IMG/VR virus record: IMGVR_UViG_2718217709_000003
DNA: 53,807 nucleotides
Reading direction: 5' to 3' (one strand)
Origin: a virus
Lineage: Duplodnaviria; Heunggongvirae; Uroviricota; Caudoviricetes
In this document: positions 11,932 through 14,434 of the stretch, one piece after another
Layout of the letters: the number at the start of each line of letters is the position of its first letter
How positions within the stretch are numbered: position 1 is the stretch's first letter
Position numbers and translations under genes: made by a program
Notes under the pieces: generated by a model
Told to the model about the DNA's origin: nothing
The model's database searches: none
The model's input: the letters and a program-made list of their open reading frames with translations, nothing else

Positions 11932-11957
11932 TTGAAACGCCGTCTTATTATTGCTGC
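11932..11957 (+). pseudogene. dacD: dacD 5' fragment (first ~9 codons, TTG start), cut by IS2
   Basis: Encodes (M)KRRLIIAA, then IS2 begins; the rest of the signal peptide (SLFVFNLSSGFA) resumes at 13289. Confidence 0.7.
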
Positions 11958-11968
11958 TGGATTTGCCC

Positions 11969-12874
11969 CTATATTTCCAGACATCTGTTATCACTTAACC
12001 CATTACAAGCCCGCTGCCGCAGATATTCCCGTGGCGAGCGATAACCCAGCGCACTATGCGGATGCCATTCGTTATAATGCTCGAACGCCTCTGCAAGGTT
12101 CTTTGCTGCCGTTAACCCGTCTGGTTTGGGCATGATACTGATGTAGTCACGCTTTATCGTTTTCACGAAGCTCTCTGCTATTCCGTTACTCTCCGGACTC
12201 CGCACCGCCGTGTTCTTCGGTTCAAGTCCCAACATCCGGGCGAACTGGCGTGTTTCATTAGCCCGGTAGCATGAACCATTATCCGTCAGCCACTCCACTG
12301 GAGACGACGGAAGATCGTTGCCGAAGCGGCGTTCCACCGCTCCCAGCATGACGTCCTGTACTGTTTCACTGTTGAAGCCGCCGGTAGTGACCGCCCAGTG
12401 CAGTGCCTCACGATCACAGCAGTCCAGCGCGAACGTGACACGCAGTCTCTCTCCGTTATCACAGCAGAACTCGAACCCGTCAGAGCACCATCGCTGATTG
12501 CTTTCTTTCACGGCCACTCTGCCTGTATGTGCCCGTTTCGATGGCGGTACAGCAGGTTTTCGCTCAAGCAACAGCGCATTCTGGCGCATGATCCGGTAAA
12601 CACGTTTGGCATTGATCGCAGGCATACCATCAAGTTCTGCCTGTCTGCGAAGCAGCGCCCATACCCGACGATAACCATACGTGGGCAGCTCTCCGATAAC
12701 ATGGTGTATACGGAGAAGCACATCCGTATCATCAGTGTGACGACTGCGGCGGCCATCCATCCAGTCATCGGTTCGTCTGAGAATGACGTGCAACTGCGCA
12801 CGCGACACCCGGAGACAACGGCTGACTAAGCTTACTCCCCATCCCCGGGCAATAAGGGCGCGTGCGCTATCCAC
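11969..12874 (-). CDS. insD: IS2 transposase InsD (OrfB, 301 aa)
   Basis: IS3-family DDE transposase ORF within the IS2 boundaries. Confidence 0.85.
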
Positions 12875-13197
12875 TTTTTTGCCCGTCCATATTCAACGGC
12901 TTCTTTGAGGAGTTCATTTTCCATCGTTTTCTTGCCGAGCAGGCGCTGGAGTTCTTTAATCTGCTTCATGGCGGCAGCAAGTTCAGAGGCAGGAACAACC
13001 TGTTCTCCGGCGGCGACAGCAGTAAGACTTCCTTCCTGGTATTGCTTACACCAGAGAAATAACTGGCTGGCTGCTACACCATGTTGCCGGGCAACGAGGG
13101 AGACCGTCATCCCCGGTTCAAAGCTCTGCTGAACAATTGCGATCTTTTCCTGTGTGGTACGCCGTCTGCGTTTCTCCGGCCCTAAGACATCAATCAT
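12832..13197 (-). CDS. insC: IS2 InsC (OrfA, 121 aa)
   Basis: [40 protein letters not shown]... HTH protein; overlaps insD in the usual frameshift arrangement. Confidence 0.85.
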
Positions 13198-13288
13198 CTG
13201 TTCTCCAATGACTAGTCTAAAAACTAGTATTAAGACTATCACTTATTTAAGTGATACTGGTTGTCTGGAGATTCAGGGGGCCAGTCTA

Positions 13289-14434
13289 GCTGCTTCTTTG
13301 TTCGTTTTTAATTTATCGTCTGGTTTTGCGGCGGAAAACATTCCTTTTTCACCTCAGCCTCCAGAGATTCATGCCGGGTCCTGGGTATTGATGGATTACA
13401 CCACCGGTCAGATTCTCACCGCGGGTAATGAGCATCAACAGCGCAATCCCGCCAGCCTGACAAAGCTGATGACGGGCTATGTCGTGGATCGCGCTATCGA
13501 TAGTCATCGCATTACGCCAGACGATATTGTCACCGTGGGGCGTGATGCGTGGGCGAAAGATAATCCGGTGTTTGTCGGTTCTTCACTGATGTTTTTGAAA
13601 GAGGGCGATCGCGTATCGGTACGTGATTTAAGCCGAGGTTTAATTGTGGATTCCGGAAATGACGCGTGTGTTGCTCTGGCTGACTATATTGCCGGTGGGC
13701 AACGGCAGTTTGTTGAAATGATGAACAACTATGCCGAGAAGCTGCATCTCAAGGATACGCATTTTGAAACAGTGCATGGTCTGGATGCACCTGGCCAGCA
13801 TAGCTCGGCTTATGATTTAGCCGTGCTTTCTCGCGCTATCATCCACGGCGAGCCCGAGTTTTATCATATGTACAGTGAGAAAAGCCTCACCTGGAACGGT
13901 ATCACCCAGCAAAACCGTAACGGGTTATTGTGGGATAAGACCATGAATGTTGACGGCCTGAAAACGGGCCATACTTCTGGTGCCGGGTTTAATCTTATTG
14001 CTTCGGCTGTAGACGGGCAGCGTCGCCTCATTGCAGTGGTAATGGGTGCTGACAGCGCAAAAGGTCGTGAGGAAGAGGCAAAAAAATTACTGCGTTGGGG
14101 GCAACAAAACTTTACTACGGTGCAAATTTTGCACCGTAGGAAAAAGGTCGGTACGGAACGCATCTGGTATGGTGATAAAGAAAATATCGCCCTGGGAACG
14201 GAACAAGAGTTCTGGATGGTGCTACCGAAAGCCGAAATTCCACATATCAAAGCCAAATATACCCTTAATGGTAAAGAGCTCACCGCGCCAATTAGCGCCC
14301 ATCAGCGGGTAGGGGAAATTGAACTTTACGACCGTGATAAACAGGTGGCGCACTGGCCGCTGGTTACCCTGGAATCTGTCGGGGAAGGCAGCATGTTTTC
14401 TCGCCTGAGTGATTATTTCCACCATAAGGCCTGA
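13289..14434 (+). pseudogene. dacD: dacD body (D-alanyl-D-alanine carboxypeptidase PBP6b), separated from its start by IS2
   Basis: Translation from 13289 gives AASLFVFNLSSGFAAENIPFSPQPPEIHAGSWVLMDY...SLTKLMTGY... (serine-type D-Ala-D-Ala carboxypeptidase). The track's upstream Met at 13154 lies inside IS2. Confidence 0.8.

Follow-up and report, generated by a model that had tools for sequence, protein, structure and literature searches.

The dacD gene of Escherichia coli, which encodes the DD-carboxypeptidase penicillin-binding protein 6b (PBP6b), is interrupted by a complete copy of the insertion sequence (IS) IS2 in IMG/VR record IMGVR_UViG_2718217709_000003, a stretch of 53,807 nucleotides that is referred to throughout, at its full length, as the window. 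The event is a plain insertional disruption: one intact IS2 entered codon 9, antiparallel to the gene, with the usual 5-bp duplication. We estimate a probability of roughly 0.8 that the resulting allele, IS2::dacD, is null or severely reduced and that its acid induction is lost, a reading which draws on the arrangement of start codons, ribosome-binding sites and promoters around the two junctions. Because the body of the gene has been parted from its native start and no usable restart was found, PBP6b is most likely not made, or is made at a level far below normal.

IS2 lies within codon 9 of dacD

Direct reading of the sequence, together with a script check, places a complete 1331-bp IS2 within codon 9 of dacD (coordinates of all features are collected in Table 1). 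The 5-bp target duplication, GCTGC, is present on both sides of the element. When IS2 and one copy of GCTGC are excised in silico, an unbroken open reading frame (ORF) of 388 amino acids is obtained from the TTG at 11932, which is the length of the uninterrupted dacD in RefSeq (1167 bp). The break point is preceded by 8 codons and 2 nt and so lies in codon 9 (M K R R L I I A A), and the reconstructed N-terminus across the break reads MKRRLIIAA/SLFVFNLSSGFA/AENIPF, where the first slash marks the break and the second the cleavage site. The initial annotation had described dacD as split by a 1331-bp IS2, with a GCTGC duplication, nine codons into its signal peptide, and this description proved exact to the base. 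It had also stated that the body of the gene is cut off from its start and first codons. This is indeed the arrangement, and the separation extends further, since the MKRRLII codons, the Shine–Dalgarno (SD) sequence and the promoter now all lie 1.33 kb 5′ of the body. An uninterrupted dacD ORF with its native start, ribosome-binding site and Sec signal peptide is not present at the locus.

Both IS2/dacD junctions were found at 100% identity in complete E. coli genomes: of the 5,426 searched, 37 have the left junction and 38 the right. An assembly artefact was considered as the source of the split gene, and is ruled out by these identical junctions in 37–38 independent complete genomes and by the perfect target duplication.

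The identity of the gene is clear. The reconstructed protein matches the NCBIfam DacD equivalog over residues 1–388 with a score of 843.9 bits, against a cut-off of 610, and contains the Pfam domains Peptidase_S11 (residues 27–262) and PBP5_C (residues 282–372). The motif S63-L-T-K is present, S63 being the catalytic serine of DacD, of which an S63A mutant has been made (PMC4916385). The gene order sbcB, dacD, sbmC, yeeA is conserved, with sbcB retained in the window as a 5′ stub. We saw no second copy of dacD that might compensate for the broken one; a combined IS2 and dacD query matched one place only in several of the carrier chromosomes.

The inserted element has the features which define IS2. 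Its left inverted repeat (IRL) is 42 bp long (TAGACTGG...CACTTAA) and starts with TA, while its right inverted repeat (IRR) is 41 bp long (TGGATTTG...CACTTAA) and starts with TG; the published ends of IS2 have the same lengths and termini (PMC3299598). In addition to the expected length, the imperfect terminal repeats and the 5-bp duplication, there are overlapping orfA and orfB reading frames (121 and 301 amino acids), a single A6G frameshift window (AAAAAAG, at canonical position 409) and a DDE (rve) domain. OrfA gives a full-length match to NF006928 (IS2 repressor TnpA; 274 bits, cut-off 229) and OrfB to NF006918 (IS2 TnpB; 728 bits, cut-off 597), and the Pfam domains detected in the two frames are HTH_Tnp_1, rve and rve_3. 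The ORFs and ends of this copy are intact. The transposase is encoded on the minus strand, antiparallel to dacD, so that IRR is directed toward sbcB and IRL lies against the dacD body.

Translation and signal peptide after the insertion

The native TTG start at 11932 is served by an SD sequence at a spacing of 7, with a calculated anti-SD duplex energy of −6.1 kcal/mol. On the other side of the element, the dacD frame is open from 13133, following an in-frame stop at 13130, and remains open across the IS2 junction. Five restart candidates were identified in this frame. GTG 13154 has an anti-SD duplex energy of +0.3 kcal/mol; ATG 13208 has one of +1.5 kcal/mol and no SD sequence; CTG 13265 has −2.8 kcal/mol at a spacing of 2; ATT 13271 has −5.2 kcal/mol, with the GGAG directly touching the codon (spacing 0); and TTG 13298 has −2.1 kcal/mol at a spacing of 16. 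ATT and CTG are very poor initiator codons. On these predictions none of the five is a credible site of initiation, and none would have a usable ribosome-binding site. The initial annotation had remarked that the only in-frame ATG upstream of the dacD body lies inside IS2, and this is correct, ATG 13208 being situated between the stop at 13130 and the body. Starts located 3′ of 13289, from which a secreted DacD might still be produced, were also considered, and none of the candidates was suitable: TTG 13298 would leave an 11-residue presequence without a workable SD sequence, and ATG 13391 is already past the cleavage site.

The part of the signal peptide removed by IS2 is small, consisting only of MKRRLII, the positively charged n-region. 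The segment AASLFVFNLSSGFA/AE, containing most of the hydrophobic core and the cleavage site, remains on the body side, and the end of IS2 encodes ...LEIQGASL in frame ahead of it. Because only MKRRLII is lost, the chimeric N-termini retain a signal-like segment, albeit a weakened one. The charge next to the core changes from +3 in the native protein to between 0 and −2 in the chimeras, which gain acidic residues (D, E), and the highest hydropathy over 10 residues is 2.12, compared with 2.92 in the native protein. The earlier view that translation from within IS2 would yield a non-native N-terminus lacking a signal peptide therefore stands as far as the non-native N-terminus is concerned, and is overstated with respect to the signal peptide.

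Promoters and the expected fate of transcripts

Sigma-70-like promoters were sought between 11650 and 13450 with a threshold of 9 of 12 consensus positions, and a relaxed scan went lower. The only site in this interval to reach the threshold is GTGACA-16-AAAAAT, upstream of IS2, which is a candidate for the native dacD promoter. No promoter-like site reading out of the IRL end into the dacD body reached the threshold in this consensus scan. The best outward match near IRL in the relaxed scan is an 8/12 site, TTAAGA-17-GATACT, at 13230–13258, wholly inside IS2. On the minus strand, no site at threshold was present in the IRR flank, where the sole relaxed match (7/12, starting at 11880) lies ∼80 bp outside the IRR end. 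An IS-generated fusion promoter, in which an outward −35 in the adjoining IS end is combined with a −10 in the flank at 16–18 bp, was not found. The known outward-facing −35 of IS2 is located in IRR (PMC9330008), and IRL adjoins only a weak promoter, PIRL, which is directed into the element and subject to repression by OrfA (PMC3299598). The initial annotation had left room for an IS-derived promoter restoring some dacD expression. This prospect is weakened by the orientation of the element, as the −35 in IRR faces away from the gene and the IRL end offers 8/12 at best.

The proposed course of events is then as follows. Transcripts from the dacD promoter would be translated only into a 67-residue stub ending at 12135. 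Past the stub stop, the plus-strand RNA across IS2 contains 338 C versus 278 G and is untranslated over ∼1.15 kb; because this untranslated IS2 antisense RNA is C-rich, Rho-dependent polarity would be expected there. Any RNA which did reach the dacD body would meet no start codon with a functional SD sequence. A search of 11000–15200 against Rfam gave no match at gathering thresholds. At pH 5, the main DD-carboxypeptidase is PBP6b, whose own promoter gives a 25–40 fold induction by acid (PMC4916385). As the dacD body is now parted from that promoter, the acid response should vanish, and periplasmic PBP6b would be absent or far below normal, without induction at low pH. The loss of dacD would be tolerable because the DD-carboxypeptidases are redundant.

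The interrupted gene is annotated as intact

In every carrier inspected, the RefSeq annotation (PGAP) applies no pseudogene flag to the locus, and instead lists a ‘serine-type D-Ala-D-Ala carboxypeptidase DacD’ of 387 amino acids (WP_032145576.1), whereas other pipelines call a 408-residue chimeric ORF (CAD5938610.1). By exact-sequence look-up, the 387-residue protein occurs on 492 public contigs and the 408-residue version on 136, for example in European Nucleotide Archive (ENA) records and in strain B2C, where it is likewise named DacD. Together, chimeric proteins carry the DacD name on more than 600 public contigs. The DacD model has a length of 389 positions, and it is likely that the open frame allows homology-guided start picking to restore nearly the full length, resulting in the ‘intact’ call. 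The 387-residue RefSeq protein is probably an annotation artefact. With the broken gene entered as intact in RefSeq and ENA, pan-genome and pseudogene surveys will miss this loss of dacD function, and the same error is likely for any other gene hit by an IS element in its first codons if the frame stays open.

Distribution and history of the allele

The distribution of IS2::dacD favours one ancestral insertion, into a common phylogroup-A-type dacD allele, which on the sequence comparisons below has probably spread by descent in O6 enterotoxigenic E. coli (ETEC) lineages L1 and L2 and their relatives, and by homologous recombination, next to the O-antigen/his region, into a poultry clade. The whole unit is present in 37 of the complete genomes, at 99.1–100% identity and with the same site and orientation. 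Most of the carriers are human ETEC (O6:H16 strains, the E-series, B2C and FMU073332), and they include the ETEC reference strains L1_E925 and L2_E1649, which belong to phylogroup A, sequence types (ST) ST2353 and ST4, and serogroup O6 (PMC8085198). The poultry carriers comprise the avian pathogenic E. coli (APEC) O2:K1:H5 strain E19035, GPEC505-623 and three 729_ isolates, and the remaining carriers are AR_0085, YJ6, PKF8 and P276M.

Six carriers were aligned, and the 1.38 kb of non-IS flank was identical in all of them except for one single nucleotide polymorphism, giving an A-to-V change, in AR_0085. Apart from that change, no secondary mutations are present in the dacD body, which is unaltered in 36 of the 37 carriers. 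The IS2 copies in the aligned carriers differ by 1–5 bases, with the exception of that in P276M, which has 22 substitutions with third-codon spacing in a 320-bp stretch of orfA, and a 1-bp insertion (aligned to window 12733–13201); the rest of this IS2 and both flanks are identical to those of the other carriers. The altered patch looks like the product of gene conversion from a diverged IS2 relative. In the ETEC chromosomes of M9682-C1, 2014EL-1346-6, FDAARGOS_1077 and B2C, the single IS2 match is the copy in dacD. As it is the sole IS2 in those chromosomes, it is a long-standing resident there and not part of a recent IS burst.

In the poultry strains, divergence from the ETEC strain 99-3165 amounts to 3–4% in the his operon and 0.6–1.6% from yeeZ to sbcB, and to about 0–0.5% from IS2 through the next ∼9 kb. 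The genome collection contains no counterpart of the poultry haplotype with an empty site, in which the same sbcB haplotype would adjoin an uninterrupted dacD. The step in divergence shows that this region, beside the O-antigen locus, is a mosaic produced by recombination in the APEC O2:K1:H5 clade.

Alternative explanations

Several observations weigh against the interpretation of IS2::dacD as a null or severely reduced allele arising from one insertion. No intrinsic terminator was predicted inside IS2, the undecayed dacD body would fit continued selection on an expressed gene just as it would fit a recent insertion, and the carrier flanks are matched at 100% identity by many dacD alleles without an insertion, which makes independent insertions possible. 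The frame open from 13133, together with the retained core and cleavage site, also gives a small chance that a chimeric protein is exported at a low level. In its developed form this would mean that dacD has been rewired rather than killed, with RNA from read-through or a weak IRL promoter being translated from a start inside IS2 (ATG 13208, CTG 13265 or ATT 13271), and the product being exported by the retained core and cleaved at SSGFA/AE to give low-level mature PBP6b, without acid induction. We regard this as improbable. The core AASLFVFNL survives and is lengthened by the IS-encoded GASL, the weak 8/12 site points toward the body, and the chimeric ORFs are called by PGAP and other pipelines; moreover, the wild-type level of PBP6b at neutral pH is 6–30 copies per cell (PMC4916385), so that even slight expression could equal it. 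However, the 8/12 site overlaps the inner end of IRL, where OrfA and the transposase bind, and would give an almost leaderless transcript. None of the three starts has an SD sequence at a workable spacing, two of them being the poor initiators ATT and CTG, and the presequences lose their +3 n-region, gain acidic residues and drop in hydropathy. Acid induction, the condition in which PBP6b matters, would in any case still be gone. More doubtful again is the idea that the left end of IS2 now serves dacD as its 5′ end, with a weak outward promoter in or near IRL and a start codon supplied by the element yielding a chimeric presequence, …GASL-AASLFVFNLSSGFA, that would still direct export and be cleaved at the native site. 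If this were true, ETEC L1 and L2 would make PBP6b under the control of IS2 and OrfA instead of acid, and the RefSeq label would be right by accident.

A different question is whether the 37 carriers reflect several independent insertions into an IS2 hotspot, at the same position and in the same orientation. This is unlikely, though less so than a rewired gene. IS2 inserts non-randomly, with hemB and phage P1 cited in PMC3299598 as hot targets. The carriers include strains which seem unrelated to one another, namely human ETEC, poultry/APEC, a kite isolate and AR_0085; uninterrupted genomes commonly have the flanking allele, and the P276M element has its 22 orfA substitutions. Against this, all carriers examined share one dacD allele, with no differences over the 1.38 kb flank in five of the six aligned, and no carrier has a divergent dacD although most E. 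coli are only 95–99% identical here. The junction, orientation and duplication are likewise uniform in all carriers, the block of near-identity in the poultry strains begins at IS2 itself, beside a left flank diverged by 1.6–4%, and the only other IS found inside dacD, in strain LZYWN_4, is at a different position. The P276M differences are confined to a third-codon patch typical of gene conversion, and this strain has the prophage remnant in common with the ETEC carriers. The idea that IS2 has been kept for an effect on the neighbouring sbcB, by transposase read-out or an IRR −35 fusion promoter, is the least probable of those considered and very unlikely indeed. It is true that IRR is turned toward the sbcB start at a distance of 235 bp, that sbcB is co-directional with the transposase genes and that IRR −35 fusion promoters are documented at ampC (PMC9330008). 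There is, however, no suitably spaced −10, the 7/12 match at 11880 being too far beyond IRR to form a fusion promoter, and in the window strain the prophage parts the stub from the sbcB body, with sbcB rebuilt using phage sequence, yet IS2 is still retained.

Comparison with known systems and significance

Judged by its structure, IS2::dacD would be an ordinary knock-out, or strong knock-down, of a non-essential gene, and a fresh instance of a well-known type of event. In classical IS2 polar mutations, such as those in the gal operon leader, and in the IS pseudogenisation of host-adapted E. coli and Shigella, an intact IS2 with a 5-bp duplication likewise lies between the expression signals and the body of a gene, and expression downstream is expected to be lost. 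The dacD case differs from the classical polar mutations in that the hit is in the signal-peptide codons and the frame is left open, which leads to the chimeric ‘intact’ calls. The ampC fusion promoter formed by IS2 (Jaurin and Normark 1983, reviewed in PMC9330008) is also comparable, as the same element is located just upstream of the gene for a serine penicillin-recognising enzyme. At ampC the −35 of IRR and a resident −10 activate the gene, whereas at dacD it is IRL which abuts the gene, IRR faces away and no −10 is suitably placed; for this reason, inactivation is expected and not activation.

The reconstructed protein shares with K-12 DacD/PBP6b (PMC4916385) the full-length equivalog match, the S63-x-x-K motif, the S11 and PBP5_C domains and the sbcB-dacD-sbmC-yeeA synteny. 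In contrast to the K-12 gene, the window copy is broken in codon 9 and parted from the acid-inducible promoter. An independent IS knock-out of dacD was found in the swine isolate LZYWN_4 (L006 2905–5404). It differs from IS2::dacD in its mid-gene position, in the element involved, an IS2-related member of the IS3 family (WP_089541817.1), in its occurrence in one genome and in being flagged as a pseudogene by RefSeq. The LZYWN_4 insertion is an indication that dacD is dispensable in more than one background.

No paper naming both dacD and IS2 was found in the literature searched, where the IS2::dacD allele is accordingly unreported, and two ETEC long-read genome papers make no mention of IS2 or dacD. 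The allele has modest biological interest, as the globally important O6 ETEC lineages L1 and L2, which must pass through the stomach, are probably without the acid-specialised PBP6b and use the redundant enzymes in its place. Loss of PBP6b could also slightly alter cell shape or beta-lactam behaviour in the carriers at low pH. The main value of IS2::dacD is practical: its junction cleanly marks ETEC L1/L2 and related lineages, and it exemplifies a disrupted gene that is annotated as intact.

Prophages and neighbouring genes

Table 1. Features of the window at and around the interrupted dacD gene
Feature	Position	Strand	Remarks
Partial integrase	1–726		P22-like remnant
IS100	812–2613		P22-like remnant
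Tailspike	8667–11168		P22-like remnant
HumD/S24-like ORF	11283–11630	−	P22-like remnant
sbcB 5′ stub	11675–11723	−	49 nt, beside the dacD promoter region, left by prophage integration; homology to 99-3165 begins at 11675
Candidate native dacD promoter	11809–11836	+	GTGACA-16-AAAAAT, upstream of IS2; consensus match only
Native dacD SD sequence	11920–11924	+	GAGGG, 7 nt 5′ of TTG; −6.1 kcal/mol
dacD 5′ stub	11932–11957	+	TTG, codons 2–8 and 2 bases of codon 9 (MKRRLIIAA); 26 nt, from the reconstruction
Residual ORF	11932–12135	+	67 aa, from the dacD start into IS2 antisense, ending ...LVWA; stop at 12133–12135
Left GCTGC copy	11953–11957	+	Last 5 nt of the dacD 5′ stub
IS2, complete	11958–13288	−	1331 bp; from ends and ORF models; RefSeq ‘IS3-like element IS2 family transposase, programmed frameshift’
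IRR	11958–11998	−	41 bp, adjoins the dacD 5′ stub, faces sbcB
IS2 orfB	11969–12874	−	301 aa, DDE/rve catalytic part of OrfAB; NF006918, Pfam rve and rve_3
IS2 orfA	12832–13197	−	121 aa; A6G −1 frameshift window at 12874–12880
Chimeric ORF of other pipelines	13208–14434	+	408 aa, from the IS2-internal ATG; CAD5938610.1; no SD sequence
IRL	13247–13288	−	42 bp, abuts the dacD body; PIRL and OrfA operator just inside, reading inward
RefSeq/PGAP ‘intact’ dacD	13271–14434	+	387 aa, WP_032145576.1; ATT start inside IRL
Right GCTGC copy	13289–13293	+	
dacD body	13289–14434	+	Codons 8/9 to 388 and stop; holds AASLFVFNLSSGFA/AE, Peptidase_S11 with S63-x-x-K, and PBP5_C

The left part of the window (1–11723) is a P22-like prophage remnant integrated into the 5′ end of sbcB; the remnant also encodes ejection proteins and Arc/Ant. 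In L1_E925, the opposite side of the prophage carries a re-formed sbcB encoding a 474-residue protein. The prophage and IS2 occur together in eleven genomes, and strain M172-1 combines a similar prophage with a dacD that is intact.

A second prophage, of 32.9 kb and of myovirus type, occupies 17537–50403, where it is inserted in a remnant of CP4-44. Its genes include a DNA invertase (17615–18316), tail fibre, tape measure, sheath, portal and terminase. It has TG...CA ends with a flanking GAAATG direct repeat, is present at the CP4-44 site only in strains 254D-1 and 360D-1, and in other genomes its invertase end adjoins unrelated genes. The varied neighbours of the invertase end suggest that the phage is transposable and Mu-like, although a large transposase ORF was not identified. 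In related genomes, RefSeq lists cbtA and cobU with frameshifts, and a number of CP4-44 and cob genes are given as partial (by homology, window 17872–18245 and downstream), which is background gene decay around the locus.

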